DNA of 64,000 nt, from contig CAVPOM010000009.1 in assembly GCA_963707025.1 (NCBI GenBank), positions 320,085-384,084 on the forward strand. Direction: 5' to 3'. Under the pieces are notes generated by a model. It ran no database searches. It was not told the DNA's origin and saw only the letters and a list, made by a program, of their open reading frames with translations. Within the stretch, counting starts at the first letter, position 1. Each line of letters begins with the position of its first letter. Shown piece after piece: positions 25,188 to 61,095 of this stretch. This DNA is from an uncultured Verrucomicrobiae bacterium. Its GTDB lineage: Bacteria; Verrucomicrobiota; Verrucomicrobiia; Limisphaerales; Palsa-1400. Position numbers and translations under genes: made by a program.

Positions 25188-25454
25188 TTACTGGCCCAGC
25201 AAAGCTGGGGCCGGTTTGGATGCTGCGGACGCCGGTGGTTTGGCCAGGAAACGGGAAAGTGGCGGGCGGTTGTCCCTCAACGCTTCCTTGTTATTGCGTT
25301 GGATTTCATCATAGACCTCCTGGCGATGCACCGGCACCTCCCGCGCCGCCTCAATGCCGACTTTGACCATGTCGCCCTCCAGCCGCACAATCTTCACGAC
25401 GATGCGGCCGTCAATTACGATGCTTTCGCCCGGTTTGCGAGATAGAATGAGCAT
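25188..25454 (-). CDS. csrA: Carbon storage regulator CsrA
   Basis: MLILSRKPGESIVIDGRIVVKIVRLEGDMVKVGIEAAREVPVHRQEVY is the canonical CsrA sequence, here with an extended C-terminal tail. Confidence 0.92.
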   Translation of the reverse strand: MLILSRKPGESIVIDGRIVVKIVRLEGDMVKVGIEAAREVPVHRQEVYDEIQRNNKEALRDNRPPLSRFLAKPPASAASKPAPALLGQ

Positions 25455-25473: not shown

Positions 25474-25902
25474 TCACGAGGCGGCCAGTGGATGGTGCAG
25501 CGAGTATTTGGCCGCGTTATTCAGAATCACCTGCTTGCCGATAAGCGTGCGCCGGTTGATCACCACCGGGCCTTTCAAATTCACCGTCGCCTTGCCGTTG
25601 CCGCGCAAGGTCACGATGTTGAGCAAAAAAGCGTCGGATGGATCGGTCAGTCCCAGAAAATCAACCTCCTCATCGCTGATGTCCGGCTGATAATCGGCCA
25701 CCAGGTGGGAGGGTGGCGCGACCAGAAACGCCCGCTTGGTGTCGTCCAGCATCTGGAACCACATGAACGGCTCCTCTGCCGGGTTGGCCAAAAGAACATA
25801 CTCTTTGACATGCTCAAAGCCCAACAATCCGAACGGCAGCCGGATCGTCTCTCTTCCTTCACTTTGGCGTGTCTTTGGTTCGGTTAATTCTACAGTGATC
25901 AT
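25474..25902 (-). CDS. fliW: Flagellar assembly factor FliW
   Basis: The signature FGLLGFEHVKEYVLL...PFMWFQ...FLV..P, and adjacency to csrA. Confidence 0.9.
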   Translation of the reverse strand: MITVELTEPKTRQSEGRETIRLPFGLLGFEHVKEYVLLANPAEEPFMWFQMLDDTKRAFLVAPPSHLVADYQPDISDEEVDFLGLTDPSDAFLLNIVTLRGNGKATVNLKGPVVINRRTLIGKQVILNNAAKYSLHHPLAAS

Positions 25903-26324
25903 GTTCGTGTATAATCGTTGTGTTCATAGAGCAAAGGGTATGCCACACCTGTCACCGGGCCGAAAATGAGTCAAAAAGTCCCAAAACAGATGAAAAGAGC
26001 GCTCCGGGCCGGTTTCTCGGCCATAATCGGTCGGCAATGGGCAAAAACAGCTTGGCCCAAGCCAATCCAACCGGCCATATTTTCCTCCCCTTTTCTCCCC
26101 TTGCGCCGCTGGTACCGCCATCGGATGACCCTCTTTCTCGATGCGCCCGAGCTTCTCCTGGCGCGCCCATCGGAGATCAAATTCGCCTGGCAGGTCCAAC
26201 CAGGAATTTATAATCACACGCCAAGAAAATGCCGATGGAGTTAATGTATTCGAGTTTTATATTGCACTTAGATTTATGCTGTATGCTGCCCTTTTTGGCG
26301 CGTTGACTCAAAGCCGCTGAAGCC

Positions 26325-26846
26325 ATGGATTTGCCAAACCCAGCGGAATTTCTCCTGCCAGTCCGGGCCGGCCCGGCGGACTTTGCCGTCAGCCGCGATC
26401 CGCAAGCCGTGTTGTCCGCCGGGCCCCTGGGCGCGGGGTTGGGCGTCTGCTTTTACGACCCGCTGGCCAGGGCCGGCGGGTTGCTGCACGCCCTGCTGCC
26501 GGATTCGCGGCTGGATCCATCCCGAGCCGCCCAACAGCCTGGAATGTTTGTTGACACCGGCCTGGCAGCCCTGCTCCAGAACGTGCAGAACCTGGGAGCC
26601 AGGGCCGAAAATCTTCTGGTCTGCGTCGCCGGCGGCGGGCGGATTCTGGAGGAAGAAGCTGATTTTGACATCGGGGGACAAAACTGCGCCGCCTTGGAGG
26701 CTTGGCTGGCCGGCCCGGGCCTGAAAATCCATGCCGCGGCCGTGGCGGGCCAGGCCAGCCGGATTTTGCGGCTCAACCTCGCCACAGGACAGGTCCGGGT
26801 CAGGCTGGCCGCCGGGGAGAAGGACATCATTTTATGCCAACCATAA
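26325..26846 (+). CDS. cheD: CheD-family chemoreceptor glutamine deamidase (copy 1)
   Basis: GLGVCFYDP...AGGLLHALLP...PGMFVDTG and a C-terminal LNLATGQVRV. It is a paralog of the second copy at 56358. Confidence 0.8.
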   Translation: MDLPNPAEFLLPVRAGPADFAVSRDPQAVLSAGPLGAGLGVCFYDPLARAGGLLHALLPDSRLDPSRAAQQPGMFVDTGLAALLQNVQNLGARAENLLVCVAGGGRILEEEADFDIGGQNCAALEAWLAGPGLKIHAAAVAGQASRILRLNLATGQVRVRLAAGEKDIILCQP

Positions 26847-27676
26847 ATCAGTACCTCAACCGCGCGCGCAATCTGCCGCCGGGCCGGGTGGTGCCGGACC
26901 TGCTGAAATTGCTCAAGCGCCCGAATCTGGACAGCAGCAGAATCGTCCATCTGCTGGCGCCCGACCCCATGCTGACGGCGCAGGTGCTGCGGATTTGCAA
27001 CAGCGCCTTTTACGGAGCGACGCCGACGGAAGATTTGTCGGAAGCGGTGACGCGGATTGGTTTTCAGGAGACCTATCGCGTCGTGGCGGCGACCAGCGGA
27101 GCGCGCCTGCTTGGCTCGGCGCTGGCGGGTTACGGCATGGGGCCGGGCGAACTTTGGCGGCACGGCTTTGTCGCGGCGACGGCGGCGCAAATCATCGCCC
27201 GCGAACTGGGCGAAGCGGAGAATCTGGTTTTCACCGCGGCGCTGATGCATGACGTGGGCAAAGTGATCCTGGCCCCGGCGCTGGAGGCGGCCGGCGCGAA
27301 CCTGTCTCAGGAAACCCCGGTCCCGATGACGCTGGTGGAAGCGGAGAGAAAATGGTTGGGCGTGGAGCACGCGGAGATGGGCGGCCGTTTGTTGGAACGC
27401 TGGAATTTCCCGCCGGAGATCGTTTCGGCGGTCTGGTTTCATCACGTCCCCAAAGGCGCGCGGTCGGATCGAAGGCTGGCGGCGCTGGTCTATGTAGGCA
27501 ACGTCATCGCCTGTCTGATGGGCCACACCCACGGCCACCTGGCCCTGGCCATGCGGGGGCGCAGCGAAGTATTTTCCATTCTTGGTCTTGCGCCCGAGAG
27601 CCTGCCCCGCTTCATGCTGGCCACTTTCGACCAATTGCAGACCCCGGACGCCCTATCCGCCCTGGCCGCCGTTTGA
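26834..27676 (+). CDS. HDOD domain protein (copy 1)
   Basis: LPPGRVVPDLLKLL...LLAPDPMLTAQVLRICNSAFYG...AVTRIGF...LMHDVGK. It overlaps the cheD 3' end by 13 nt. Confidence 0.8.
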   Translation: MPTINQYLNRARNLPPGRVVPDLLKLLKRPNLDSSRIVHLLAPDPMLTAQVLRICNSAFYGATPTEDLSEAVTRIGFQETYRVVAATSGARLLGSALAGYGMGPGELWRHGFVAATAAQIIARELGEAENLVFTAALMHDVGKVILAPALEAAGANLSQETPVPMTLVEAERKWLGVEHAEMGGRLLERWNFPPEIVSAVWFHHVPKGARSDRRLAALVYVGNVIACLMGHTHGHLALAMRGRSEVFSILGLAPESLPRFMLATFDQLQTPDALSALAAV

Positions 27677-27936: not shown

Positions 27937-28887
27937 CTAGGGAGCCGTGGTGTTTATGTAATCCAGAATGGACAGGTGCATGATCACCTCGCTGCTTTGC
28001 AGGGCGGCTTGATAGGCGGTCTGGGTCTGGTCCAGTTTCGTCAGGGTGGTGGCCAGGTCGGCGCTGGTGAGATTGGAGGTCTGGGTGGTAATGTTGGTGC
28101 CCAGTTGCGTGGCCGCGGTGCCGGCGCTCTCCAAGGTGGATTGAAGGACCCCATTGTCCGCAATTCCGGAAACAATGTTGTTCTCGTCCTTGGTCAAGTT
28201 GGGGCTGTCGGTGGAGGCGATGGCGGCGGTGTTGCCGGAAGTCAGGTTCTGTTGCAGCGAAATCAAATCACGGAACAAATCCGCGCCGGAACGGCTGTCG
28301 GCCAGGAGTCCGACCGGGCCGGTGCCGGTGGGGTTGCCCCCGGGAACCAGGGCCGAAACGGTCTGGCCGGGGCCGATCTGGCTTTGGGACAGGGCGGTGT
28401 TGCCCTTGTAAGTGACCGCGGTGACGTTGCCGTTGGCATCGGTGGTGGCGACAAACGGCGGCTGACTGTTCACGGTGCCGCCAAAAATGTAATGGCCCTG
28501 CGCGTCCTGGGTGTTGGCCGCCTGCAGTGCTTCCTGGATTAAATTGCCGACTTCCGTGGCGTAAGCAGCCATTTGAGTGGAGGAAGTGACGCCGCTGGCC
28601 TCAGTGGCGATTTCGCCGGCCTGTTCGGTGAGGGTTTGCAGGCTGTTCATGGCGGAGGCGGCGCTGGTGGCGGTGCCCTGAAGCTGGGTGATGTTGCCTT
28701 GGTATTGGGCATTGGCCCCGGCCTGCGCTTGCAGGTTGAGCACCTGTTCCATGGTGGCGGGGTCGTCCTCCGGCAAAGTGACTTTCAGACCCGTGGTGAC
28801 CTCGCTTTGCAGTTGGATCTGCTGGCTTTGCAGTTGATTGGTCTGCGCCAGGAAATTGCTGGCGAATAAATCGGTGGAGATGCGCAT
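27937..28887 (-). CDS. flgL: Flagellar hook-associated protein 3, FlgL
   Basis: Flagellin-like N-terminus MRISTDLF...Q...LQ and position after flgK. Confidence 0.85.
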   Translation of the reverse strand: MRISTDLFASNFLAQTNQLQSQQIQLQSEVTTGLKVTLPEDDPATMEQVLNLQAQAGANAQYQGNITQLQGTATSAASAMNSLQTLTEQAGEIATEASGVTSSTQMAAYATEVGNLIQEALQAANTQDAQGHYIFGGTVNSQPPFVATTDANGNVTAVTYKGNTALSQSQIGPGQTVSALVPGGNPTGTGPVGLLADSRSGADLFRDLISLQQNLTSGNTAAIASTDSPNLTKDENNIVSGIADNGVLQSTLESAGTAATQLGTNITTQTSNLTSADLATTLTKLDQTQTAYQAALQSSEVIMHLSILDYINTTAP

Positions 28888-28913
28888 AGGTTTTAATCCG
28901 GTTGGCAGTATTA

Positions 28914-30299
28914 TTAGTGCTTCATGTTAATAACTGTCTCCATCATGGCGTTCAAGGTGGTGACCAGTTGGGCGGAGGCTTCGTAGGCCTTTTGGAACTC
29001 CATCAGATTGGTCATCTCTTGATCTATGGAAACCCCGCTTTGCGAACTGCGCTGATCGGTCAAGGTGGTGCTGATGGCCTGGCTGGTGTTGAGCTGCTCG
29101 GCCGCCGTGTCTATGGCATGGCCCAGGTTGGCGACGGCCTGGGCGTAGCTCTGGGTCAGGGACTGGTTGCCCAGGGCGGCGTTGTTCTGCGTGGCCAGGT
29201 CCGCCAGGGAAAGGGCGATCTGGCTGTCCCCGCCGGCCCCGGGGATGCTGCTGGCCTGGAACTGGGAGGGGTCGGAAACCAGGCTGCTGTTGACGCCGAT
29301 GTCGGCGGCGCTGGTTCCGGTGAAAAAAACCTGGCCGGTGCCGCCGCTGGCATCATAGCCCGCCGAATATATATTATTGACTTGTGTAATGAGTTGCCCA
29401 GCCAGGGTGTCGAGGCTGGTTTGCAGGCCGGCCAGCGCGCCGTCGCGGGCGGCGATGTTGCCGCCGATGCTTCCGCCGGTCACGGCCAGGGGCGTGGCCC
29501 CATTCCCGTCCTGGATGAGGAGCTGTCCGCCTCCGGTGTCGTAAGTTTGCAGGCCGTCAACCGCCTGCCCGCCGCTGACCATGGACACGCCGCCGATGCT
29601 GATGTCCACGCTGCCGTTGGCCTGGGCGGCGGTGGAAATGTTGACCATGCTGGCGAGGTGCTCGATGGTTTGCTGGCGTGTATCCACCAAATCATCGGCC
29701 GTGCCTCCCCCGGCTTCGGCCAGGACGATCTGTAGGTTGAGGGTGGCGATCTGGCTCAAGTCCTGGTTGCTGGAGGCCACCTCGTTTTCAATGGTGGTGT
29801 TCAAATTGCCGCGGACCTGGCTGAGGTTGGCGGAAACCTGGTTGAATTGGTTGGTCACTTCCTGCGCGCTTTGCACGACCGTGGCCGGGTCGCCCGCGCC
29901 GGTGGTCATGCTGGAAAAGGAATTGAAAAGATTGGAGAGCATGGCGGCCAGGCCGGTGGTGCTGGCGGCGGAGGCGCTGGTGAGTTGCTCGCCCAGGTAA
30001 GCCTCGGCATTTTGCAGGGCGCTTTGCTGGGCGGTGAAGGAGCCGGTGAGGCTGTTTTCAGCGACAATTTGGTTGTCCAGCAGGCTGTCGCGAGATTCGC
30101 TGATGGAGACCACGTTGGCGCCGGTGCCTTCCTCCCCGGCGGGCGTTTCCAGCCCCGGGGTGGTTTGGACCACCGCCTGCTCGTCAGCGTAGCCCGGATT
30201 ATTGACATTGGCCATGTTTTGTCCGGCCACGGCCATGGCCTCCTGCTGCGTGGCAAGAGACCGGGAAGCCAGATCGAGCGTACCAAAGAGTCCGAGCAT
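28914..30299 (-). CDS. flgK: Flagellar hook-associated protein 1, FlgK
   Basis: N-terminus GLFGTLDLASRSLATQQEAMAVAGQNMANVNNPGY and C-terminus SGVSIDQEMTNLMEFQKAYEASA. Confidence 0.9.
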   Translation of the reverse strand: MLGLFGTLDLASRSLATQQEAMAVAGQNMANVNNPGYADEQAVVQTTPGLETPAGEEGTGANVVSISESRDSLLDNQIVAENSLTGSFTAQQSALQNAEAYLGEQLTSASAASTTGLAAMLSNLFNSFSSMTTGAGDPATVVQSAQEVTNQFNQVSANLSQVRGNLNTTIENEVASSNQDLSQIATLNLQIVLAEAGGGTADDLVDTRQQTIEHLASMVNISTAAQANGSVDISIGGVSMVSGGQAVDGLQTYDTGGGQLLIQDGNGATPLAVTGGSIGGNIAARDGALAGLQTSLDTLAGQLITQVNNIYSAGYDASGGTGQVFFTGTSAADIGVNSSLVSDPSQFQASSIPGAGGDSQIALSLADLATQNNAALGNQSLTQSYAQAVANLGHAIDTAAEQLNTSQAISTTLTDQRSSQSGVSIDQEMTNLMEFQKAYEASAQLVTTLNAMMETVINMKH

Positions 30300-30315
30300 A
30301 AATGGTTGGTTGGTG

Positions 30316-30822
30316 TCAGCCCACGGCGTTGTAAAGCGGGTGGACGTTGAGCACCGAGCCGCGCTTGTGGCCGTTGCCGTTATAGAGGGAGGTTTGACGC
30401 GCCGGAAAAAGCGTGCGCAACAATTCCTGCATCAATTCCACCGAGCGGCGCAACAGGACGTGGTTTTGCCGCGCCCGCTGGCGGACCCGTCCCAGCAATT
30501 GGTTGTTTTCATCCACCAACGCCCGCAGCAGCGGCCGGTAATCGGGCGGCAGGAGTGGGATCAAATGGGTGAACGAGGCGCTTTCCGGCTGGCGGCAGGC
30601 CAGCGCGGCCGCGCCGCGGCATTTCTCGCGCTGTTGCCGTGCGCCCTGGATGGCGGCGGCCTGGGCCTGAATGAGGCTGATGGACTGGAAAATCTCCCCG
30701 GCGGAGCGCGCTTTGACCTGCTCCTGCTGGCGGTCCAGCAGGACCAGCATTTCGCCATACTGCTGCAATTCCTCGCGCAACGCGGCGATAAGCGGCCCAA
30801 GGCTGTCGGTAGAGTCATTCAT
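30316..30822 (-). CDS. flgN: FlgN-like flagellar export chaperone
   Basis: Helical 168-aa protein (LREELQQYGEMLVLLDRQQEQV) directly upstream of flgK. Confidence 0.6.
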   Translation of the reverse strand: MNDSTDSLGPLIAALREELQQYGEMLVLLDRQQEQVKARSAGEIFQSISLIQAQAAAIQGARQQREKCRGAAALACRQPESASFTHLIPLLPPDYRPLLRALVDENNQLLGRVRQRARQNHVLLRRSVELMQELLRTLFPARQTSLYNGNGHKRGSVLNVHPLYNAVG

Positions 30823-48797: not shown

Positions 48798-49039
48798 TCC
48801 TGCCCGTTCCTTTTCGATTAAACCAGTTAAATCTCCATGATTGACTCCAAACCCACGCCGGCGGTCAAGATCTGGTTTACCCTACAGGATCAATCAAGGT
48901 ATCCCGCGAGTTCGTCACCATCGGCATATAGGGTAAGCCCGAAGGGGCGGTAGTGTTTTCCTATCATTAAGCGATGCATCCTTTGACCGATGGTTTCTCT
49001 ATGAAACACGAAGCGGTGTCAGAACATGCCGGGAATAAC

Positions 49040-50674
49040 ATGCATAAAGTACAAAATTGGACGATCAAAAAGAAAATCATCGCCGGGTTGGTCGCCGGCC
49101 TCGTGGTGGTCTTGCCCCTCGCCGTTGGATCGCACCTTCTTTTCCAAAAAGTCAAGGCGGACACCAAAAACGTGAGGACGGAGGCCCTGCCGGGGCTGAC
49201 GGCGGTGTTACAGATCAGGGGCCTGAGCAGTGAACTCCATATCCAGGTCCTCCGCGCCATCCTGGCCACAACCCCGGAGGACCGGAAAAGATTTGAGGAC
49301 GAAGCCGCTGCGATGCAGGCGACCATTTTGAAGGTCATGGATGGCTACGAGAAGGCGATCCCGCTCGCCGGGGACCGCCAGATGTTCAAGCAAATGGAGG
49401 CCAGCCGCGATACCTATGACGCCGCCCGCGATCATCTTTTTGAATTGGCCAGGGCCGGCAAGGCGGAGGAGGCAAAGGCGTTCGCCAACTCGACTATCGG
49501 AGCCGATTACGAGGCTTATGAAGAGATGGTCAGCAAGATGCTGGATGGGAACAGGGCGAATGCGGAAGAATCCAGCGCGAATGCCCAGAGGACAGCCGGG
49601 AATGCCAGCTTGATCATCGGCGGCGCGTCCGTGGTGGTCATCGTGTTGTGCCTGGTTTTCGCGTCAGCCATTGTGATCGGCCTGAATCGTGTTTTGGTAA
49701 GAATAGCCAACTCCCTTAACGAGGATTCCGGCCGGGTTTCCAGCGCCGCGACTCAGGTTTCATCCGCCAGCCAGACTTTGGCCGAAGGCGCCAGCGAACA
49801 GGCGGCGTCACTGGAGGAAACCAGTTCTTCGTTGGAAGAGATGGCCTCCATGACCAAACGCAATTCCGAGAATGCCCAGAAAGCCAACGATCTCGCCAAG
49901 CAAGCTCGTGAAGCCGCGGATAAAGGCGTGGGCGACATGCAATCCATGTCCACCGCGATGGAAGCCATCAAAGTGTCCAGCCACGATATTGCCAAGATCA
50001 TCAAGACCATAGATGAAATTGCTTTCCAGACCAACATTCTGGCTTTGAACGCCTCGGTGGAAGCGGCCCGCGCCGGTGAAGCGGGCATGGGATTTGCCGT
50101 CGTTGCCGATGAAGTTCGCAACCTGGCCCAACGCAGCGCCCAAGCGGCCAAAGAAACGGCGGGCAAGATTGAGGGAGCTATTGCCAAGGCAGGGCAAGGA
50201 GTCGAAATCAGCAGCCAGGTGGCGCGGACTTTGAATGATATCGTGGCCAAAGTGCGGCAGGTTGACGAACTGGTGGCCGAAGTCGCCGACGCATCGCGCG
50301 AACAAGCGCAGGGCGTCACCCAAATGAACACCGCGGTAGGGCAGGTGGACAAGGTGACGCAGAGCAACGCGGCCAGCGCCGAGGAAAGCGCCGCTGCCGC
50401 CGAAGAACTCAATGCCCAGGCTGAGACGATGAAACAGACGGTGGCGGAATTGCTGGACCTCGTGGGCGGCAAGAGCGGAGCTGTCACGACAAAACCGCCT
50501 GCTCCGGTCGCACCCGTAAAGGGAGTTCATGCAGCTCCTCCGGCAGCAAAATGGCGCGCCACTGGCAATGGCAGCGGAATTGGCAATAGACATGCCCATT
50601 TTGCGCCGGCAATGGCCGCCGCGGGAAACCGGCGCGGTGAGATCCCAATGGAAGATGATTTCAAGGACTTTTAA
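49040..50674 (+). CDS. Methyl-accepting chemotaxis protein with a four-helix-bundle type sensor
   Basis: TM1, a helical periplasmic domain, TM2, and the highly conserved hairpin [47 protein letters not shown]. Confidence 0.9.
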
Positions 50675-50700
50675 ACCGGAAAAGCACCTGTCACAAAACT

Positions 50701-52773
50701 ATGAAACTACAAACTAAAGTCGGATTGCAACTGCTGGGCGGGCTGATGGGTGTCCTGGCGGTTTCGCAGGCGGTACAATATGTTCAGGCGCACCGCTCCA
50801 ATGGCAGGCTGGCGGGGTCGAGCCAGGCGCTGCTCCAGGAACGCGAGCTTCAGAATGTCAAGAACATCCATGCCGCGGTGGATTTCAGCGTGAGCGATTG
50901 CCTGGGTCGCGGGGACATGGATGTGTTCCCCCGGCTGATCAAGTTGCAGCAAACCATGCCGGGCTTCCTGGAGTTCTCCCTTTACGATGAAGAAGGGAAG
51001 ATCAGCGATTCGTCGCTCAAATCCGCGCGCGGGCACAAGCTGGAGCCGCAGCTCAAGGCGGTGCTTTACTCCAAACCGGACGAACTGCTGCAAACGACCA
51101 GCAACGGTTTCGAAATCTACAAGCCCCTGATCGCCACCGCGAAATGTCTGGAATGCCACGACGCCAAAGTTGGTGATATCCGCGGGGTGACCTATTTCCA
51201 TTTCTCGAACGAGGCCGCCAGCCGGCTGGCCGGGCAATTCGGCGAAATCACCACTGCCGCCAATCACCAATGGCAGGCTCTTTCGGTAGGTATTCTGTTT
51301 TTTGGAGGTTTGATCGTCGCGGCCCTGACGTTTGCCATCACCCGCCCCATCCTTAAGACCTTGTCCGCCACGACGAGCGAGTTGAACGGGCAAAGCGCCG
51401 AAATCCGCGCGGGAGCCACCCAGGTGGCCAGCGCCGCCGCCACGCTGGCGGAAAGCGCCAGCGAGCAAGCCGCCTCTCTGGAGGAAACGAGTGCCTCGTT
51501 GGAGGAAGTCTCCAGCATGACCAAGCGCAACACGGAAAATGCCGAGAAGGTCAACCAATTGGCGCGCGAGGCCCGCGTCGCGGCCGACAGCGGCGCGGCC
51601 GAAATGCAGGCCATGGCGGGAGCCATGAATGAGATCAAAACCAGCGGGGATGACATCGCCAAGATCATCAAGACCATTGATGAGATTGCCTTCCAGACGA
51701 ATATCCTGGCCCTGAATGCCGCGGTGGAGGCCGCGCGCGCCGGCGAGGCGGGGCTGGGCTTCGCCGTCGTGGCCGATGAAGTGCGCAACCTGGCGCAACG
51801 CGCCGCCCAATCCGCCAAGGAAACATCCGCCAAAATCGAGAACGCGGTCCACAAGACGGCCCAGGGCGTTCAGATCACCGCCGGGGTGTCAAAGAGCCTG
51901 CAGGAGATTGTGGCCAAAGCGCGCCAAGTGGACGAATTGGCGGGCGCGGTTGCCAGCGCTTCCAAAGAACAGTCGCAGGGCATCGAACAGGTCAACATTG
52001 CGGTGGCGCAGATGGACAAGGCCACGCAGAGCAATGCCGCCAGCGCCGAGGAGAGCGCCGCGGCCGCGGAACAACTCAACGGTCAAGCCGCAATCATGAA
52101 AGAATCCATCCTGGAATTGTTGAAACTCGTCAATGGCAGCAGCCAGACGGTCTTGTCCGCGTCAGTGCCCCACACCCATGGTGGCGGCTCGTCCCGCAGC
52201 CCGATCAAAGCAGCTTCACATCCAAGGGGGAACGGAAAATCCGGCCATTTGTCATCCTCTCCGCAGGGCGGCCCGGCAGCGGGACCGCGGGCGATGCAGG
52301 CAGGCTTGGTTGCCTGGGACGAGTCATCCATGTCCACCGGCGTGGAATCGGTTGATGCCCAGCATCAAGATTTGATCCGGAACATTAATGAGCTGCACAG
52401 GGCCTTTCTGGCCGGGACGGCGAAGGAAGAGTTGCTCAAAATGCTGGTTTTCCTCGGCGAATACGTCCAAACGCATTTCCAGCATGAGGAGCGGGTCATG
52501 CAAGAGCATCAATGCCCCGTTCGCGGCAAGAACAAGGCCGCGCATGACCAGTTTCTGAAAGATTTCGCAAGCCTGCACGAAATCGTGAAACGGGAGGGAT
52601 CCTCCACCTCGGCGGCCATGCAAATCAAGACCATGCTGGGCAACTGGCTGAAAAATCATATTTGCACCGTGGACACTCATTTGCGCGGCTGCCGCCAGAC
52701 GCCCCCGGCCTTGGAAAATGCCGGGTATGGCCGGAGCGAGATCCCGATGGCAGGCGAATTAAAAGCCTTTTAA
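50701..52773 (+). CDS. Methyl-accepting chemotaxis protein with a periplasmic CxxCH site and a C-terminal hemerythrin-like domain
   Basis: Periplasmic AKCLECHD, the MCP hairpin [30 protein letters not shown], and then the hemerythrin ligand pattern ([28 protein letters not shown]). Confidence 0.9.
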
Positions 52774-52791
52774 TTCCCACCCGAACCAACC

Positions 52792-53310
52792 ATGACTACC
52801 TCGACAATACTGCCGACCGCCACCGGCAAGGCCGGCGCTGCCGCGGGAAAGTATCTTACCCTGACACTGGGTGGGGAGTCCTACGGAATCGCCGTAACCA
52901 AGGTGCGGGAGATCATCCGCCCGATGAAAATAACCTTGGTGCCGCAGATGCCCAATTTCGTCAAGGGCGTGATCAACCTGCGCGGCAAGGTGATTCCGAT
53001 CGTGGACCTGCGGCTGAGATTTCAAATGCCCGAGGTCCCGGCCACCGAGCGGACCTGCATTGTGGTTGTTCAAGTTATGCTGGGTAACGGCACGGAGGCT
53101 TTGATGGGCCTGGTGGTGGACGGCGTGGAGGAAGTCGCCAACATCCCGGCGGCCGATATGGAGCCGACGCCCGATTTTGGCACCTGCCTGGACGCCGCCT
53201 ACATTATCGGCATGGCCAAGGTCAAGGGCGCGGTAAAAACACTGCTGGACATTGACCGGCTGCTCAAAGAAGAAACCGGCGCTCCCCTCCCGAACGGGGC
53301 TGAAGCGTGA
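52792..53310 (+). CDS. cheW: CheW coupling protein
   Basis: YLTLTLGGESYGIAVTKVREI...VPQMPNFVKGVINLRGKVIPIVDLR. Confidence 0.9.
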   Translation: MTTSTILPTATGKAGAAAGKYLTLTLGGESYGIAVTKVREIIRPMKITLVPQMPNFVKGVINLRGKVIPIVDLRLRFQMPEVPATERTCIVVVQVMLGNGTEALMGLVVDGVEEVANIPAADMEPTPDFGTCLDAAYIIGMAKVKGAVKTLLDIDRLLKEETGAPLPNGAEA

Positions 53311-53333
53311 AGCCCAAACAGAATTGACGCGCC

Positions 53334-55499
53334 ATGAACCCAGAAGCAGTCGCCGCGCTGAAAAGCCTTTCGGAAAAGATCGCCCGCGAGCTGGTTTTCG
53401 CCGAACCCGGCAAAGACCTTGGTCTGCTGCCGGTGAACAGTCTGCTCATCCAGATCGAGGAACATCTGGCCCAAACGGGCTGTGCGGACCCGTTGCCGCA
53501 GGCGGCTCGTTTGGCGCGCCGCTGGGTGGAAGGCATCATTGAATCCACCGGCACCTTCAGCGTCTCCGGCCTGAAGCGGTTGGGAGAATGGGCGGCTTGG
53601 TTGCAGGCGGGGGTACAGGCGCTCGAGAGCCAAAGTGACATGCCGGCGATACCCGGCGGTTGGGAAAGTCTGAATATCGAGGCGGGCGCGCCGGAACCGG
53701 CTGCGCCGGAAGAATTGCCGGATCAATCTGAACCGGCGCTGCTGCTGAATCTGGATCAGGATGGTGAGTTGCTGCGGGAGTTCATCAACGAATCCCAGGA
53801 GCACTTGGAGAACATCGAACAAGGTGTGCTCGTCCTGGAGGAAAACCCGTCGGACGCGGAGACGCTGAACTCGATCTTCCGGGCCTTTCACACCTTCAAA
53901 GGCGGTTCGGGCTTCTTAAACCTGGAGGCCATCAAGACACTGGCGCACGAGCTGGAATCGGTGCTGGATCTGGCCCGGCAACAAAAGCTGGCCATCACAC
54001 CCGAGGTCATCAATCTCATCCTGGAGGGCGGGGACACGCTCCAGCGGTTTATGGGTGAGATCGGCGCCCGCCTGTCCGGCCAACAACCGGCAGGTCCGAT
54101 TATCGTGCCGACCTTGCATTTGCTGGGATGCGTCCGGGAGGTGCTGGCGCGTGGCACAGGGTCTTCGGCTCCAGAGACCGCCACGGCGATTCGTCCCGTC
54201 GTTGCCGCCGCAATCCCACCCGCGCCAGCGGAGTCCCGAAGTTCCGGCGCGAGGGCTGTCGCTGAAACCGCCTTGGAAATCAAGCCGGGAAGTCCGGGCA
54301 AAACCCGGACCATTGCTCCCGGCACCTCCATCAAGGTGGATACGTTGAAGCTGGACAGCCTGGTTGATCTGGTGGGCGAACTGGTGATTGCGCAATCGTT
54401 GATCATCCAGAACCGGAATCTCAACACTTCGCGGGACGAGCAACTGACCCGGGATCTGGCGCAACTCGGGCACATCAGCAAGGATTTGCAACGCACGGCC
54501 ATGTCTCTGCGCATGGTGCCGATCAGCGCGACCTTTCAAAAGATGCACCGGCTGGTGCGCGACCTCACAGCCAAGGTGGGCAAACAGGTGGAGTTAGTGA
54601 CCGAAGGGGAAGACACCGAACTGGATCGCACCATTGTGGAGGAGATCAGCGATCCGCTGGCGCACATGGTTCGCAACTCCGTGGACCACGGGATCGAAAA
54701 GGAAGCCCTCCGGCAACAGCGCGGCAAGCCGGCGCGCGGCACGGTGTTCCTCAGGGCCTTTCACCAGGGCGGCAACATTGTCATCGAGATCAGGGACGAC
54801 GGCAACGGTCTGGACCGGGAACGGATTCTGGCCAAGGCGCTGGAGCAGGGTTTGGTGAAGCCGGATGAACAACTTTCGGACAGCCAGATCTTCCATCTCA
54901 TTCTTGCCGCCGGGTTTTCCACGGCGGAAACCGTTACCGATCTTTCCGGTCGCGGAGTCGGATTGGATGTAGTGCGCCGCAACATCGAGAAACTGCGCGG
55001 CAAGATCGAGATTCAATCCAATCCGGGACAAGGCTCCACCTTCCGCATTTATGTGCCACTCACCCTGGCCATCATTGACGGCCTGCTCGTCGGCGTGGGA
55101 GAACACCGTTACATTGTACCGACGTTATCGGTGTGCGAATCGTTCCAGCCGAAGGTCGAGATGATCCAGACGGTGCATGGGCGCGGTGAACTGATCAACG
55201 TGCGCGGCCGGTTGCTGCCGCTGCTGCGCCTTTACTCGCATCTGGGGATTCAGCCGGTGACGACCGATCCGGCGCGGTCCATCGTGGTGGTGGTGGAAGC
55301 GGGCAAAGAGGCCCGTTGCCTGCTGGTGGACCAACTGCTCGGCAAGCAGGAAGTCGTCATCAAGAGCCTGGGTGAAACTTTCGCCGCCAACCGTTGTCTG
55401 GCCGGAGCGGCCATCCTGGGCGACGGGCGCGTCGGGCTGATTCTCGATCCCCAGGCGTTGGTGCGTCTTGAATCCGCCCCCATGGAGGCGGCGGCTTGA
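53334..55499 (+). CDS. cheA: CheA histidine kinase
   Basis: Hpt motif FRAFHTFKGGSG, a dimerisation domain, the HATPase block (HMVRNSVDHGIE, DDGNGLD, GRGVGLDVV), and a C-terminal CheW-like domain. Confidence 0.92.
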   Translation: MNPEAVAALKSLSEKIARELVFAEPGKDLGLLPVNSLLIQIEEHLAQTGCADPLPQAARLARRWVEGIIESTGTFSVSGLKRLGEWAAWLQAGVQALESQSDMPAIPGGWESLNIEAGAPEPAAPEELPDQSEPALLLNLDQDGELLREFINESQEHLENIEQGVLVLEENPSDAETLNSIFRAFHTFKGGSGFLNLEAIKTLAHELESVLDLARQQKLAITPEVINLILEGGDTLQRFMGEIGARLSGQQPAGPIIVPTLHLLGCVREVLARGTGSSAPETATAIRPVVAAAIPPAPAESRSSGARAVAETALEIKPGSPGKTRTIAPGTSIKVDTLKLDSLVDLVGELVIAQSLIIQNRNLNTSRDEQLTRDLAQLGHISKDLQRTAMSLRMVPISATFQKMHRLVRDLTAKVGKQVELVTEGEDTELDRTIVEEISDPLAHMVRNSVDHGIEKEALRQQRGKPARGTVFLRAFHQGGNIVIEIRDDGNGLDRERILAKALEQGLVKPDEQLSDSQIFHLILAAGFSTAETVTDLSGRGVGLDVVRRNIEKLRGKIEIQSNPGQGSTFRIYVPLTLAIIDGLLVGVGEHRYIVPTLSVCESFQPKVEMIQTVHGRGELINVRGRLLPLLRLYSHLGIQPVTTDPARSIVVVVEAGKEARCLLVDQLLGKQEVVIKSLGETFAANRCLAGAAILGDGRVGLILDPQALVRLESAPMEAAA

Positions 55500-55515
55500 T
55501 GGCCCCGGCAAGAGG

Positions 55516-56355
55516 ATGCAGGCGATGACCACCATGAAGGCCGAGTCGGAGGCGTACCGCTACATCATCGAACTGGTCCACCACCGCTGCGGCATCCGAT
55601 TGCACCAGGGCAAGGAAGCGCTCATCAAAGCGCGGTTGGGCAAACGCCTGCGCCACTTCAGTTTCGCCAGCCTGGCCGCCTACTGCGACTTTCTCCAGTC
55701 TGGTGGCAACAACGAGGAGGAATTGGAGCTGATGACCGAGGCGTTGACTACAAATTTCACCGGCTTTCTGCGCGAGGAAAGCCATTTCAAGTTCATGGTG
55801 GACCAAGGGCTGCCTGCGCTGCTTGCCCCGGGCTCGAGCAAAATCCGGGTCTGGAGCGCCGCCAGTTCCACCGGGGAAGAGCCTTACTCGATCGCCTTCT
55901 ATCTGGGCGACCGTCATCCGCCTGAAGAAGGATGGGACTGGCGGATCACCGCCTCGGACATTTCCACCAAAGTGCTGGGCAAGGCGCGCCAGGCGATTTA
56001 TGCGCAAGAGCGGGTGCAGGGGCTGCCCAGGGAATGGCTGCGCAAATACTTTCAAAAGGGCACCGGCCCGTGGGAAGGCCACTATCGCATCAAAAGCAGC
56101 CTGGCCGAACGGGTGACCTTCCAGCAGATCAATTTGATCGAACCCTACTGCCATGCGGAGCCGTTCCAGATCATCTTCTGTCGCAACGTCATGATTTATT
56201 TCGACCGTTCCACCCAGGAACAACTGGTCAAACAGCTCTGCCGCTTTCTGGTGCCCAATGGTTATCTTCTCATCGGCCACTCCGAGAGCCTCAACGGCCT
56301 GAACCTTCCGCTGCGCTGCCTGCGGCCCAGCATCTACCAAAGGAGCCAAGCCTGA
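55516..56355 (+). CDS. cheR: CheR chemotaxis methyltransferase
   Basis: TTNFTGFLREESHF, VWSAASSTGEEPYSIA and IFCRNVMIYFD. An AAGAGG ribosome-binding site lies before the ATG. Confidence 0.9.
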   Translation: MQAMTTMKAESEAYRYIIELVHHRCGIRLHQGKEALIKARLGKRLRHFSFASLAAYCDFLQSGGNNEEELELMTEALTTNFTGFLREESHFKFMVDQGLPALLAPGSSKIRVWSAASSTGEEPYSIAFYLGDRHPPEEGWDWRITASDISTKVLGKARQAIYAQERVQGLPREWLRKYFQKGTGPWEGHYRIKSSLAERVTFQQINLIEPYCHAEPFQIIFCRNVMIYFDRSTQEQLVKQLCRFLVPNGYLLIGHSESLNGLNLPLRCLRPSIYQRSQA

Positions 56356-56357
56356 AT

Positions 56358-56903
56358 ATGGGAAGCCCGTCCCTGAGCGCCATCGCCGAGTTTGAAAGCA
56401 AGCTGATCGTCGGAGTCGGCGGACTGGCGGTTTCCAACAATCAAGCCATGACCCTGACGACCTATTCGCTGGGTTCCTGCCTGGGCATAACCATTTACGA
56501 TCCGGTGACCCGCGCGGGCGGATTGTTGCACGCCATGCTGCCGGATTCTTCGATCAATTCCGCCAAAGCCAGCGAGCAACCGGCCATGTTTGTGGATACG
56601 GGGATTGGCGCTTTGTTCCGCGCGGCCTACGCGCTGAAGGCGGAAAAACACCGGATGCAAATCTGCGTGGCTGGCGGCGCCCAGTTCATGGACAAATCCG
56701 GCTTTTTCAACATCGGTCAGCGCAACTACGCCTGTCTGGCCCAACTGCTCGGCCAGCATGGCTTGGTCATTGACGCGGCGGACGTGGGAGGACTGGTCAG
56801 TCGGACCTTGAATCTGCGCTTAAAGACCGGGGAGGTGCGCCTGAAAAGTTCCAGCCTGAGCGAAGAAACCATTCTGTTTAGAGGTTATGCAAGCGTTGGA
56901 TAA
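56358..56903 (+). CDS. cheD: CheD chemoreceptor glutamine deamidase (copy 2)
   Basis: TTYSLGSCLGITIYDP...AGGLLHAMLP...PAMFVDTG...NIGQRN. Confidence 0.85.
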   Translation: MGSPSLSAIAEFESKLIVGVGGLAVSNNQAMTLTTYSLGSCLGITIYDPVTRAGGLLHAMLPDSSINSAKASEQPAMFVDTGIGALFRAAYALKAEKHRMQICVAGGAQFMDKSGFFNIGQRNYACLAQLLGQHGLVIDAADVGGLVSRTLNLRLKTGEVRLKSSSLSEETILFRGYASVG

Positions 56904-57735
56904 CTACATTGACTCGGTGAAGACCCTGCCGCCAGCCCCGCGGGTTCTGCCGCAGTTGCTCGTGCTCTTGAACTTGGACGACACCGACGCCCGGGAGATT
57001 GTGGACCTTATTTCGCTGGATCCGGCCTTGACGGCGAAGGTGCTGCAGCACTGCAACAACGCGGCATCCGGCCGGTCCTGCGCCGTCTCCGATCCGGCGG
57101 AGGCGGTGACGCAAGCCGGCTTCGGCGCCATTTACCGGTTGGTGGCGATGGTGGTGGGCGAAAGCCTGCTGGGATCGGCCCAACAAGGCTACGGCATTGG
57201 CGCGGGCGAATTGTGGGAGCATTCGGTCACGACCGCGGTGGCGGCCAGGGTCATTGCCGGCAAACTGGGCGGCGAGGACAATCTGGCGTTTACGGCGGGG
57301 CTGCTCCATGACATCGGCAAACTGGTGCTCGGCGCTTTTCTGGAGGGCATGCAACCGTCGGTTTCGAGAGAAACCGGGCCGTCCGGCCATTCCTTTCTGG
57401 AAGCAGAGAAAGCCATTCTTGGGGTGGATCACGAGGAAATCGGCGGGCGGCTGCTGGCGCGGTGGAATTTCCCGGAAAAGCTGGCGGCAGCGGTGCGGTG
57501 CCATCACGACCCGGCCCAAGCCCGGCCGCATGAGCAACTGGCCGCTTATGTTCATCTGGGAGACATCATCGCCCACTGTCTTGGGCAGGCCCAAGGGTAT
57601 GAATCCTTCGCCGTGCGGACCCGGCCGGAGGCGCTGGAGATTTTGGAAATCAGCCCAAGGGAAATCGAGACGCTCGTCCTCGAAACAGACGCGGCCTTGC
57701 AACAATGCCACGGGTTCACCCGCACCAGATCATGA
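56887..57735 (+). CDS. HDOD domain protein (copy 2)
   Basis: LPPAPRVLPQLLVLL...LISLDPALTAKVLQHCNNA...AVTQAGF...LLHDIGK. It overlaps the cheD 3' end by 17 nt, and its stop overlaps the cheB ATG. Confidence 0.8.
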   Translation: MQALDNYIDSVKTLPPAPRVLPQLLVLLNLDDTDAREIVDLISLDPALTAKVLQHCNNAASGRSCAVSDPAEAVTQAGFGAIYRLVAMVVGESLLGSAQQGYGIGAGELWEHSVTTAVAARVIAGKLGGEDNLAFTAGLLHDIGKLVLGAFLEGMQPSVSRETGPSGHSFLEAEKAILGVDHEEIGGRLLARWNFPEKLAAAVRCHHDPAQARPHEQLAAYVHLGDIIAHCLGQAQGYESFAVRTRPEALEILEISPREIETLVLETDAALQQCHGFTRTRS

Positions 57736-58817
57736 GCACCCGCCCCATCCGACTTTTGGTGGTGGATGATTCCGCGCTGGCGCGCAAGATCATCACCAGC
57801 AGTCTGGCCCCGTTTGCTGACATCGAAGTGGTCGGCACCGCGGTGGACCCTTATGTGGCCCGCGACAAAATCCTGGAACTGTCTCCCGATGTCGTGACGC
57901 TGGACATCGAGATGCCGCGCATGGACGGCATCACCTTCCTCAAACTTCTCATGAAACACCATCCCATGCCGGTGATTATTATGAGTTCGCTTACCCCGGC
58001 CGGTTCTGTCAAAGCGATGGAGGCCCTCCACGCCGGCGCGGTGGACATCATGGAAAAACCGGGCGGCACCTTTTCCGCCCACGGCGACGGCGGCCGTCTG
58101 GTCGAAAAGATCAGGGCCGCCGCTGGCGCCCGGGTGCGCGCGCATCCGGAGGAAACGACTTTGTTCACCCGCCGCCCAACTCGGGCCGCGGGACAAGGGA
58201 CGCCCAGGTCCCGCTCGTTTCCCGCGCGCAAGATCATTTTGCTGGGGGCCTCCACGGGTGGCACCGAGGCGTTGAAATCGGTGCTGACTTCCTTGCGGGG
58301 CGACCTGCCGGGCATCTGCATCGTGCAACACATTCCGGCTTACTTCTCCAAGGCGTTCGCCGACCGGCTCAATCAAATCTGCCCGATGGAGGTGCGGGAG
58401 GCCAGCCACGGGGACATCCTCCAGCCGGGATTGGCCTTGATCGCGCCCGGCGGGCGGCATCTGCTCTTGAAATGGCAGGGGAGTCACTATGCGGTGGAAT
58501 TAAACGACGGGCCGCCGATCCATCATCAAAGGCCGGCGGTTGACATTATGTTTGACTCTGCCGTGAGAGCGGGGGCCGGCCCGCACGCCGTCGCGGCGGT
58601 GTTGACGGGCATGGGCGCCGACGGGGCGGCCGGCCTGTTGCGCCTGCGCGAAGCGGGGGCCGCCACGGCCGCCCAAAACGAAGAGACCTGCGTCGTCTTC
58701 GGAATGCCGCGGGAAGCGGTCCGGCTGGGCGCCGCGCAGCAAGTCCTGGCGCTGTCGCGCATCGGCCAGTTTTTGGAGCAGGAAAACCAGGAACCACCAC
58801 CCGATACTTATGAATGA
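57732..58817 (+). CDS. cheB: CheB methylesterase/response regulator
   Basis: REC domain (IRLLVVDDSALAR...DVVTLDIEMPRMDG) plus an esterase domain (LLGASTGGTEAL, IVQHIP, GMGADG). Confidence 0.92.
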   Translation: MSTRPIRLLVVDDSALARKIITSSLAPFADIEVVGTAVDPYVARDKILELSPDVVTLDIEMPRMDGITFLKLLMKHHPMPVIIMSSLTPAGSVKAMEALHAGAVDIMEKPGGTFSAHGDGGRLVEKIRAAAGARVRAHPEETTLFTRRPTRAAGQGTPRSRSFPARKIILLGASTGGTEALKSVLTSLRGDLPGICIVQHIPAYFSKAFADRLNQICPMEVREASHGDILQPGLALIAPGGRHLLLKWQGSHYAVELNDGPPIHHQRPAVDIMFDSAVRAGAGPHAVAAVLTGMGADGAAGLLRLREAGAATAAQNEETCVVFGMPREAVRLGAAQQVLALSRIGQFLEQENQEPPPDTYE

Positions 58818-59301
58818 CCAAATCGAACAGATAGACCGGTTAACAAGGGATGCGGTGAAGGAGGTCTTTCAAAGCATGTTGTCCATGGAGATGAACCCCC
58901 AGCCGCCCAGCCCGCTGCCGGCGGACCCCGCCGGGCAGATTATTGGTTCGGTCGCCTTCATCGGCGAGGCCACGGGCATCATTTACCTTTATTCCGGCAT
59001 GAGCTTTGCCACGGTCATCACCAGCCGCCTCCTGGGGATTTCCGAGCCGGAAGTGGACACCGGGGACATGGTGACTGACGCCATCGGTGAATTGAGCAAC
59101 ATGGTGGTGGGCTACGTGAAGTCGCGCCTGTGCGACAGCGGCTGGCCCTGCACGCTGACCATCCCCTCGGTGGTGCGCGGGCAGCAACTGAGCGTCGAAG
59201 GCTCGGCCCAAGTCACCAGAAGAGTGATCGGATTCCGCAACTGCCAATATCTTTTGTTGGCGGAAGTGTTGCTAAAAGAGTCCAAAGCGAAAGAATTATG
59301 A
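58810..59301 (+). CDS. cheX: CheX-like CheY-P phosphatase (CheC/CheX/FliY family, single active-site motif)
   Basis: One D-x3-E-x2-N motif (DAIGELSNMVVG), followed about 21 residues later by Pro. Size is 163 aa. Confidence 0.65.
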   Translation: MNDQIEQIDRLTRDAVKEVFQSMLSMEMNPQPPSPLPADPAGQIIGSVAFIGEATGIIYLYSGMSFATVITSRLLGISEPEVDTGDMVTDAIGELSNMVVGYVKSRLCDSGWPCTLTIPSVVRGQQLSVEGSAQVTRRVIGFRNCQYLLLAEVLLKESKAKEL

Positions 59302-60422
59302 GTATCAAAATCCTGACCGTTGATGATAGCAAAACCATTCGCCTCATCGTGGCGAAGGCCTTCAAACCATTCGACTGCATGGTGCTGGAGGCGGACAATG
59401 GCATCATGGGCCTGGCGGTGGCCAGCCGCGAGAAGCCGGACGTCATTCTGCTGGACTACACCATGCCCGTGATGGACGGGTTTGAGGTCCTGGCGCGGTT
59501 GCGTTCCGACCCGGACCTGAAAGCCACCCCGGTGATCATGCTGACCGCGGAAGCGGGGCGCGCGACGATCATGAAGATCGCCAAGCTCGGCGTGCGCGAC
59601 TACCTCATCAAGCCATTCAAAGGCGAACTGCTCATCGAGCGCGTTGGCCGTGTGGTGGAGCTGAAGGACAAGAACGCCGCTGTCGCAAAAAACAAGCGGT
59701 TTGACGACCCGATCCACATCCTGGTGGTTGATGACAAACCCGCCATCGTCGAGCAAATTCGCGCCGGCCTGGCCGACACGCCGTGGAAGCTGACCAGCGC
59801 CGACCAACCCGGGCAGGCTCTGGACAATTGCATGGAGAACGGGGTGGATTTGGTGTTGGCCAGCTTGTCGCTGCCCAATGACGGGGCTTATATGCTCTTT
59901 CAAAACTTGCGCGGCTTTGCCAACACCGCCTCAATCCCGATGATTGGGATGTGCGTGCGCACCGCCGCCGCCGAGCTGGCGCGCGCCCAGCAAACCGGCT
60001 TCGCCAGCGTGATCACCAAACCAATAGACCCTGCCGAACTCAAGACCAAAGTCAGCCGCACCCTCAAACTGCAGACCTCGTACAAATACTTCCAGCAACG
60101 CGACGGCGTCCTGGCGCTGATGCTGCCCAAGGATTTCCATCCGGGCGTGGCGCAGGAAGTTTCCACTCATCTGGACAGCCAGTTGGCCGGCACCGTGGAC
60201 GCGGGCGGCAATAAAATGATCATTGATCTCCTCGCGGTGGAGGCCGCCAGCTTGCCCGTCATCGAACTGGCGATTTCCGCCATTCAGGCGGCCACCAAGT
60301 TATCCATGTGTTTCGCGGTAGTCGGTTCGGCAGCCATCAAGGGCCAGTTCCGCAGTTGCGAGGAAACCCAGTCCTGTGTGTTTGCCGAGAGTTTTGAACA
60401 GGCTCTGGCTCTTCTCAGATAA
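59298..60422 (+). CDS. Response regulator with REC, a second REC-like domain and a C-terminal STAS-like domain
   Basis: REC1 is KILTVDDSKTIR...DVILLDYTMPVMDG...MLTAE...KP. REC2 is ILVVDDKPAIV...DLVLASLSLPNDGA...KP. The last ~115 aa fit the STAS pattern (DGVLALMLP...MIIDLLAVEAASLPVIE...FAVVG...FESFEQALALL). The ATG overlaps the cheX stop. Confidence 0.7.
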   Translation: MSIKILTVDDSKTIRLIVAKAFKPFDCMVLEADNGIMGLAVASREKPDVILLDYTMPVMDGFEVLARLRSDPDLKATPVIMLTAEAGRATIMKIAKLGVRDYLIKPFKGELLIERVGRVVELKDKNAAVAKNKRFDDPIHILVVDDKPAIVEQIRAGLADTPWKLTSADQPGQALDNCMENGVDLVLASLSLPNDGAYMLFQNLRGFANTASIPMIGMCVRTAAAELARAQQTGFASVITKPIDPAELKTKVSRTLKLQTSYKYFQQRDGVLALMLPKDFHPGVAQEVSTHLDSQLAGTVDAGGNKMIIDLLAVEAASLPVIELAISAIQAATKLSMCFAVVGSAAIKGQFRSCEETQSCVFAESFEQALALLR

Positions 60423-61095
60423 ACACGGGATCTCCGGTTAAACCCGAACCCGGGGTTTCAGCCGAGTTCGCCAAACTGACTCAATTACATGAGCTGGCCG
60501 CCAGACTCTCCTCCCATTTGGAGATGGACGTGGATTTGCAAAGGTCCAAACCGGCGGCCGGGCCGTTCCAGAGATTTGCCGACAGCCTCTCCAACCCGGC
60601 CTTTCTCACGATGCTCAAGCTGCAGCCTCTGGCGGAGATCGGCCGGCTGAGCCTCCCGCCGCGGCCGCGCCTGTGAATTGTGGCCAGAGAATTCGGGATG
60701 CGAGCTCGGACTCTGGAAGGAATACGCCAAACCGGCCAGACGGAGGCCCGCCTCCTTTCCCTGGTCGCAAGCCTGATGATCCACCAAAGGTGCCGCACCA
60801 GGAGCATCCTCCTGGAGGCGCGGCCCGGCGTCCCGGGAAACGAAAGCAACCGCCGCCTCCGGCAAGACTTCGACCCCGGACAAACTCGCGAACCGCCGCC
60901 CATTGACCGCGTTGTTTTGGACTGGTCGGACCGTCCACAACGGATTTGGCGGAGAGGATGGCAAACGACGGCGCAGGCCCTGGAGGTTCGAGCGGATTCA
61001 TTTCGGGCGGATGAGTGCGGTTGAGCCTTGCTGGTTGCGCCCCGCCAAGCCGAGATATCGCCAAAAAAAGCTTCTAAGTAAACAAATAATGGTGA

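Follow-up and report, generated by a model that had tools for sequence, protein, structure and literature searches.

A recurrent cheD-HDOD gene pair in CheC-less, CheX-type chemosensory operons

Control of the receptor-modifying enzyme CheD is understood solely for systems that pair it with CheC or, in Borrelia, with CheX. In Bacillus subtilis and Thermotoga maritima, cheC lies upstream of cheD, not downstream. The HDOD domain, for its part, is a very common bacterial signaling domain whose molecular role has been elusive for about twenty years, and HDOD mutants repeatedly alter motility in Pseudomonas, Xanthomonas, and Campylobacter. For Borrelia burgdorferi, a CheX-CheD complex has been reported (Moon et al. 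2016, cited in PMC5318424), and a 2008 survey described HD-domain genes inside the alpha-group che clusters of Geobacter (PMC2577667). This survey and motility screens were all that our literature search returned on HDOD in chemotaxis or on phosphohydrolases with CheD, and the search found no publication on a cheD-HDOD pair. Here, we analyzed a window of 64,000 nucleotides (contig CAVPOM010000009.1, positions 320,085 to 384,084) from an uncultured Verrucomicrobiae bacterium, in which a gene for an HDOD protein directly follows cheD at two places: once inside a che operon (copy 2) and once beside flagellar genes (copy 1). The cheD-HDOD pair is an ancient, co-translated two-gene module of widespread CheC-less, CheX-type chemosensory operons, and its recurrence points to an accessory protein of chemotaxis that has not been described before.

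A preliminary description of this DNA had proposed that the window holds two paralogous cheD-HDOD units, each with the HDOD start codon inside the 3' end of cheD, and both units proved to be present with their overlaps of 17 nt and 13 nt. All four genes lie on the plus strand. Copy 2 consists of cheD2 (56358..56903; 181 aa; PF03975 E=2e-25, 89.5 bits) and HDOD2 (56887..57735; 282 aa; PF08668 E=1.9e-46, 158.5 bits; PF01966 E=4.6e-13), which share 17 nt in different frames (56887..56903), an arrangement of translational coupling. Copy 1 consists of cheD1 (26325..26846; 173 aa; PF03975 E=2.6e-21, 76.2 bits) and HDOD1 (26834..27676; 280 aa; PF08668 E=8e-43, 146.6 bits; PF01966 E=1.5e-8), with an overlap of 13 nt (26834..26846). 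When both family assignments were checked with hidden Markov models, all four proteins scored above the curated Pfam cut-offs (25 bits for PF03975 and 22.9 bits for PF08668), and the HDOD matches covered profile positions 1-196 and 6-196. The motif AGAGG stands immediately 5' of the HDOD2 ATG, while GGAGAAGGA precedes the 13-nt overlap of copy 1. The HDOD start codons are backed by more than 100 same-length orthologs with an MQ(A/T)LD N-terminus, as well as by a paralog-paralog alignment that runs from residue 1. Identity between the paralogs, put at roughly 45 percent in the preliminary description, was measured at 42% for CheD1 and CheD2 and 45% for HDOD1 and HDOD2.

The association was then quantified from both sides. 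In an HDOD-centered census, the HDOD alignment was compared with one genome per species, which yielded 80 loci at 30-75% identity, 78 of them assessable. A cheD gene lay directly upstream of HDOD on the same strand in 39 of these 78 relatives; assuming 1-3 cheD per about 4000 genes, chance would be expected to place one there in ~0.04 of 78. In a CheD-centered census, the CheD alignment was compared with metagenomes, which yielded 80 loci at 47-82% identity, and HDOD was found directly downstream of cheD at 70 of the 76 assessable loci. According to their record titles, the linked HDODs belong to Verrucomicrobiota, Planctomycetota, Kiritimatiellae, Krumholzibacteriota, KSB1, Glassbacteria, and several unclassified metagenome-assembled genomes (MAGs), and also to Desulfobacterota/Thermodesulfobacteriota, including Desulfobacterales, Desulfuromonadaceae, and Desulfurivibrionaceae. 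The gene 5' of the linked cheD varied (CheR at 18 loci, none at 12, CheB at 5, CheW at 3, and CheA at 1). The 39 unlinked HDODs had no neighbor of similar recurrence: their 78 flanking genes fell into 118 families, the commonest being a response-regulator receiver with 7 occurrences. Whether counted from HDOD or from CheD, the enrichment of cheD-HDOD adjacency amounts to orders of magnitude, yet the adjacency is not obligate.

The two genes are also closely joined. Overlaps were found at 32 of the 39 cheD-to-HDOD junctions, 26 of which were 4-nt overlaps of the ATGA/GTGA type. Overlaps of 13, 25, and 34 nt occurred in Verrucomicrobia, and six further junctions were gaps of 9-20 nt; the 13-nt overlap of copy 1 recurs at loci L005, L006, L010, L011, and L083. 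In comparison, only 4 of 17 control junctions between cheR and cheD overlapped (Fisher p=5e-5), and 19 of 34 between HDOD and the next gene (p=0.02). The earlier argument that conserved adjacency and overlap are not due to chance, and would show as enrichment in a wider neighborhood census, was thus upheld across phyla. In the copy 2 operon of the window itself, neighboring genes from cheR to the final receiver gene all either overlap or lie <=2 nt apart, so that the overlap taken alone is weak evidence there for a bond between cheD and HDOD.

Linked and unlinked HDODs were intermixed in a neighbor-joining (NJ) tree, and the idea that CheD-linked HDODs form a monophyletic group was rejected; the linkage is therefore old and was lost more than once. 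Some record labels looked doubtful. HDODs from five MAGs labeled "Bifidobacteriaceae" (L015, L022, L046, L049, and L055) grouped with Verrucomicrobiota, those of L046 and L055 in che contexts, and the near-identical loci L028 and L034 were labeled "Archangium" and "Chthonomonas". Both sets of labels are probably binning or taxonomy errors.

The operon that houses copy 2 runs, on the plus strand, in the order MCP, MCP-hemerythrin, cheW, cheA, cheR, cheD, HDOD, cheB, cheX, and a double-receiver gene. Its upstream part (48974..55499) comprises genes for a methyl-accepting chemotaxis protein (MCP; 48974-50674) and a second MCP with a hemerythrin domain (50701-52773), cheW (52792-53310), and cheA (53334-55499), followed by the methyltransferase gene cheR (55510..56355), which ends 2 nt before cheD2. 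Downstream of HDOD2 come cheB (57705..58817; REC plus methylesterase), cheX (58810..59301), and the double-receiver gene (59295..60422), the last gene of the operon and one that is kept beside HDOD at locus L003. For cheB, a start at either 57705 or 57732 can be read; with a start at 57732, cheB would overlap the HDOD2 stop in an ATGA. The hemerythrin domain of the second MCP is C-terminal and of the di-iron, O2-type sensor kind; this MCP shares an operon with the di-metal HDOD. Directly past the operon lies a 331-aa open reading frame (ORF; 60481-61476, minus strand) with no Pfam match, in a region partly kept in the L003 DNA.

CheX, a CheC-family phosphatase of phosphorylated CheY (CheY-P), bears directly on the place of HDOD in this operon. 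The window protein (PF13690 E=6e-17), encoded two genes 3' of HDOD2, carries the D-x3-E-x2-N...P phosphatase motif in the form DAIGELSN-x21-P, and it was the only match to the CheX-family profile in all six frames of the window. It is predicted to be a catalytically competent phosphatase and is a candidate for an alternative or additional partner of CheD. CheX was found within the flanks of 30 of the 39 linked loci but only 2 of the 39 unlinked loci, and among 85 otherwise unlabeled ORFs in the linked clusters it was again the commonest family, with 8 more members; CheC was not among the recurrent families of these 85 ORFs. The HDOD proteins themselves gave no CheC/CheX profile match and fall outside that family, whose phosphatase site reads D/S-x3-E-x2-N-x22-P. 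The preliminary description had noted that the window lacks cheC and had seen HDOD as filling the vacant CheC slot. The first statement is literally true, although a CheC-family phosphatase sits in the same operon; the second is weakened by this competent CheX, by its frequency at the linked loci, by the CheX-CheD complex reported in Borrelia, and by the place of cheC upstream of cheD in B. subtilis and T. maritima.

Receivers and CheX are tied to HDOD in further ways. A REC protein was encoded directly 3' of HDOD at 35 of the 39 linked loci, with a single-domain receiver at 23 and CheB at 11. Fifteen loci, each of them with a cheD-HDOD pair as well, had an HDOD N-subdomain of ~85 aa (profile positions about 14-98) fused to a full CheX domain. 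In L001 (5896-6615), both halves of this HDOD_N-CheX fusion scored above the Pfam thresholds, and the other fusions were at L029, L055, L058, L066, L117-L119, L124, L128, L133-L135, L139, and L142; the window CheX is without the HDOD_N extension. These observations could mean that CheX is the real partner of CheD, as in Borrelia, where the complex is reported to enhance phosphatase activity, and that HDOD works with CheX and CheY, its N-subdomain recruiting or regulating the phosphatase or docking it to the array. We consider this unlikely. The lone pairs (copy 1, L008, L009, and L083-L085) have no adjoining cheX or cheY, cheB separates CheX from HDOD in the window, and the HDOD_N-CheX fusion could equally serve to bring CheX to CheD.

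We also examined whether the HDOD proteins retain a metal site. HDOD had been called a degenerate HD fold in the preliminary description, and the degenerate HDOD type is one in which HD active-site residues are absent (Galperin 2006, as cited in PMC4114195). This label does not suit the window proteins: the six residues H112, H141, D142, H182, H206, and H207 (copy 2 numbering) align with the five His and one Asp that coordinate two irons in PDB 3HC1 from G. sulfurreducens, and both copies pass PF01966 (HD) and the TIGR00277 model for HDIG domain-containing metalloproteins above cut-off. The six residues are invariant in 78/78 relatives, whether linked or unlinked, and HDOD1 has its metal ligands intact, their columns being invariant in alignment A1. 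Among characterized receiver-linked HDODs, DVU0330 of D. vulgaris has its HD residues intact and is a weak phosphodiesterase, and GsmR of Xanthomonas, which affects flagellar genes, is ligand-poor. Judged by their residues, the window HDODs belong with the ligand-retaining, DVU0330-like kind and not with the ligand-poor kind of GsmR and SadB. Outside the Pfam model, HDOD positions 235-244 were better conserved in CheD-linked than in unlinked members, with G237 in 100% of linked vs. 51% of unlinked HDODs and R244 in 61% vs. 10%.

An AlphaFold2 model of HDOD2 (predicted local distance difference test score, pLDDT, 83.6) was compared with solved structures using Foldseek. The top 12 matches were all solved HDOD proteins, among them 9QZK (SadB), 3HC1, 3MEM, 3M1T, MmoQ, 3I7A, and Cj0248. 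PgpH, HD-GYP, and PhnZ were the next neighbors, with weak matches (HD-GYP at E >0.2), and both window HDODs lack the GYP motif of the HD-GYP cyclic di-GMP phosphodiesterases. 3HC1 was considered as an ortholog of the CheD-linked clade; this was not supported, identity being ~30% even for a Desulfuromonadaceae member.

An intact metal site next to a REC gene in an HD-fold phosphohydrolase raises the possibility that HDOD is itself a CheY-P phosphatase that took over the catalytic role of CheC. We regard this as highly improbable, since the window and most linked loci already have a competent CheX, and we know of no HD-domain aspartyl-phosphate phosphatase. The same site is also in keeping with HDOD as an autonomous component of the motility network, either a di-metal (di)nucleotide phosphodiesterase or a di-iron redox, O2, or NO sensor that feeds CheY, CheX, or the motor, with its place beside cheD due to inherited operon order and co-expression. 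The invariance of the ligands in linked and unlinked members, the HDIG metalloprotein match, the activity of DVU0330, the published proposal of HDOD as a dinucleotide hydrolase, and the identity of the next structural neighbors all agree with this explanation, as do the hemerythrin MCP in the same operon, the published HDOD motility phenotypes, which make no mention of CheD, the unlinked half of the relatives, and the persistence of HDOD without cheD at L003 and L012. However, it leaves unexplained why the constant upstream neighbor is cheD rather than cheR, cheB, or cheY, why the cheD-HDOD junction is the tightest of the operon, and why isolated pairs stay together even after CheD has lost its catalytic Cys. 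We hold it as the main rival of the CheD-partner proposal made below, a tentative possibility, somewhat doubtful but real.

The loss of the catalytic Cys concerns copy 1. When aligned with T. maritima CheD (2F9Z chain C, E about 4e-21 for both window proteins), CheD2 retains the whole catalytic set Thr..GSC..His (TT..GSC..H) and is predicted to be an active receptor glutamine deamidase. In CheD1, GSC is replaced by GAG, which puts Gly at the catalytic Cys position and leaves only His of the Thr/Cys/His set; CheD1 is predicted not to be a deamidase. Against the nine NCBIfam CheD equivalog models, the best scores of the two proteins were 104 and 92 bits, with cut-offs of 223-369, and by this measure the window CheDs form a divergent subfamily outside the curated models. 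Gly at the Cys position was found in 22 of the 58 listed close CheD homologs (P0122-P0177), the window protein included. To our knowledge, such a clade has not been described. Its members span ~40-88% identity, have intact ORFs of ~173 aa, and have lost neither the His nor the motifs LLPDS and FVDTG, a pattern that indicates purifying selection. Wherever the neighborhood could be read (L008, L009, L083, L084, and L085), the Cys-less CheD gene was followed by an overlapping HDOD. At L008, L083, L084, and L085, the pair stood beside csrA (fliW was called at all except L083) with no other che gene near, and at L009 it stood alone, apart from other che genes. As in copy 1, cheD and HDOD have traveled together at these five loci, separate from the rest of the che genes. 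Since CheD1 is without the catalytic Cys, modulation of deamidase activity by HDOD cannot be the whole story.

In the window, copy 1 is a lone plus-strand pair between minus-strand genes, with csrA (25188-25454) and fliW (25474-25902) on one side and flgL, flgK, and flgN (27937..30822) on the other. A sigma-70-like promoter match, by consensus only, was found ~110 nt 5' of cheD1 (26187..26214, plus strand), and no FliA (sigma-28) promoter was found before copy 1 within 2 mismatches. A 102-aa ORF without a Pfam match (24875-25183, minus strand) lies between a TPR gene and csrA, and its position and sequence are kept in L012. Across genomes, the fliW-csrA/flgL slot is occupied by cheR-cheD(GSC)-HDOD-cheB in L011, by the Cys-less cheD-HDOD pair in L008 as in the window, and by a solitary HDOD in L012; in L005, the four genes cheR-cheD(GSC)-HDOD-cheB all lie 3' of csrA-fliW. 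On gene content, the slot reads as a reductive series. The differing contents of the slot in L011, the window, L008, and L012 would agree with copy 1 being what is left, in decay, of an inserted cheR-cheD-HDOD-cheB module and CheD1 a functionless relic on its way to being lost. So would L084 (5510-6356), where the HDOD gene beside the Cys-less cheD is broken into ORFs of 140 and 124 aa, by a frameshift or pseudogene or by an assembly error. We find the relic reading quite improbable, given the intact ORFs and retained motifs of the Cys-less clade and the overlapping HDOD that it keeps in L083-L085 as well.

From the adjacency, we infer that CheD and HDOD bind each other. HDOD may then be a CheD-directed regulatory partner that takes the CheD-binding half of the CheC role while CheX takes the phosphatase half, a proposal whose chances we judge to be about even. 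In this proposal, HDOD would act with CheD at the receptor-modification, or adaptation, step and would bind or sequester CheD in the manner of CheC in Bacillus and Thermotoga; the state of HDOD would be set by the neighboring CheY-type receiver, by a ligand or the redox state at the metal pocket, or by both; and CheX would provide the phosphatase half. Within the che operon, HDOD2 would work in this way on a CheD that is competent for catalysis. Copy 1 would be a reduced derivative of a cheR-cheD-HDOD-cheB module inserted in a late flagellar cluster, where a CheD without its nucleophile would act by binding alone and the pair would be a regulatory unit, non-enzymatic as far as CheD is concerned. 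The two censuses, the tight junction, the isolated pairs, and the links to receivers and CheX support the reading of HDOD as a partner of CheD, as do the better conservation of positions 235-244 in linked members, the recurrent motility phenotypes of HDOD mutants, and the precedent of SadB, in which an HDOD domain serves as an adaptor between proteins in the control of motility and biofilms.

Several observations weigh against this proposal. Six of the 76 CheD relatives have no HDOD next to them, a cheB or receiver gene following directly or the cheD being truncated. Locus L003, the nearest species-representative relative of copy 2, keeps HDOD with just the last 25 codons of cheD, in the order cheD remnant, HDOD, and double-receiver gene, with cheB, cheX, and the upstream che genes gone; HDOD occurs without cheD in L012, another of the nearest relatives; and in L044 and L063 (Krumholzibacteria) it lies directly after cheW, linked to che genes without CheD. 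A profile from the CheD alignment, searched against 1.84 billion representatives, gave 9818 matches, and no CheD-HDOD fusion was seen among the long proteins in the best 150 of them. Nor did a mirror-tree analysis of 40 cheR-cheD-HDOD triplets set the pair apart (CheD-HDOD 0.86, CheD-CheR 0.86, and HDOD-CheR 0.90); it gives no co-evolution signal specific to CheD-HDOD and is uninformative. In addition, HDOD could be dispensable for the control of CheD, since these operons have CheX, with which CheD is known to pair in Borrelia. The metal site, invariant as it is, would be superfluous in a pure CheD sink and suggests that HDOD acts as an enzyme or a sensor. Judging from the losses in L003 and L012, HDOD is the most persistent element of the module. 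In L003 (6940-7014 and 7001-10135), the double-receiver gene is followed by a FliG-like gene that has no counterpart in the window. The CheD representatives did include CheD-REC fusions and a tandem CheD-CheD protein (P0271, P0309, and P0179).

Together, these results establish the cheD-HDOD association solidly, and from it we infer the mechanism; the preliminary interpretation as a whole is partly supported. A further-reaching version, which we think rather unlikely in full, is that a large class of chemosensory systems without CheC has in HDOD an unrecognized core accessory protein, a di-iron ligand or redox sensor that binds CheD (at the flagellar locus, a Cys-less pseudo-enzyme) and gates the access of CheD to receptors under CheY-P control. 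If true, a CheD-binding di-iron sensor would be the first defined molecular role for HDOD and would account for the recurrent motility phenotypes. The conserved pair offers a concrete handle on both the role of HDOD and the control of CheD, with a candidate partner and a defined pathway of receptor modification and adaptation, and the clade of Cys-less CheDs, in which HDOD has been retained, is a natural experiment. The HDOD_N-CheX, REC-HDOD, and CheD-REC fusions sketch a network of CheD, HDOD, CheY, and CheX. In phyla that have been little studied (the Planctomycetes-Verrucomicrobia-Chlamydiae [PVC] group, Desulfobacterota, Krumholzibacteriota, and KSB1), the pair also singles out a class of chemosensory operons that is missing from current Che inventories.

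Among described systems, the Geobacter survey of 2008 draws no link between the HD genes and cheD and reports the alpha-group clusters in Geobacteraceae only (PMC2577667). The CheC-CheD system of B. subtilis and T. maritima (2F9Z) resembles the present one in three ways: in a che operon, cheD adjoins an accessory gene dedicated to it; the Thr/Cys/His residues are retained in CheD2; and a CheY-type receiver is encoded nearby. It differs in that the partner gene here lies downstream of cheD and encodes an HD-fold metalloprotein unrelated to CheC, the phosphatase role falls to a separate CheX, one CheD copy is Cys-less, and both window CheDs score far below all nine NCBIfam equivalog cut-offs. 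As in the CheC-less CheX-CheD system of Borrelia, CheD is combined with CheX, here at 30 of the 39 linked loci; no HDOD is reported in Borrelia, whereas here a conserved HDOD gene stands between cheD and the REC and cheX genes. The stand-alone di-iron HDOD 3HC1 from Geobacter sulfurreducens shares the fold and the five-His/one-Asp ligand set, at an identity of about 23-30%. SadB of Pseudomonas (9QZK), a YbaK-HDOD adaptor, is the top structural match to the HDOD2 model; it differs from the window proteins in the absence of three His ligands out of five, in its occluded pocket, in the additional YbaK domain, and in its task, which is to direct AmrZ to proteolysis. Finally, the REC-HDOD regulators GsmR, DVU0330, and MmoQ (3LJX/3P3Q) likewise couple HDOD to a receiver, but here HDOD stands alone, the receiver is the product of a separate neighboring gene, and cheD is the constant gene upstream.

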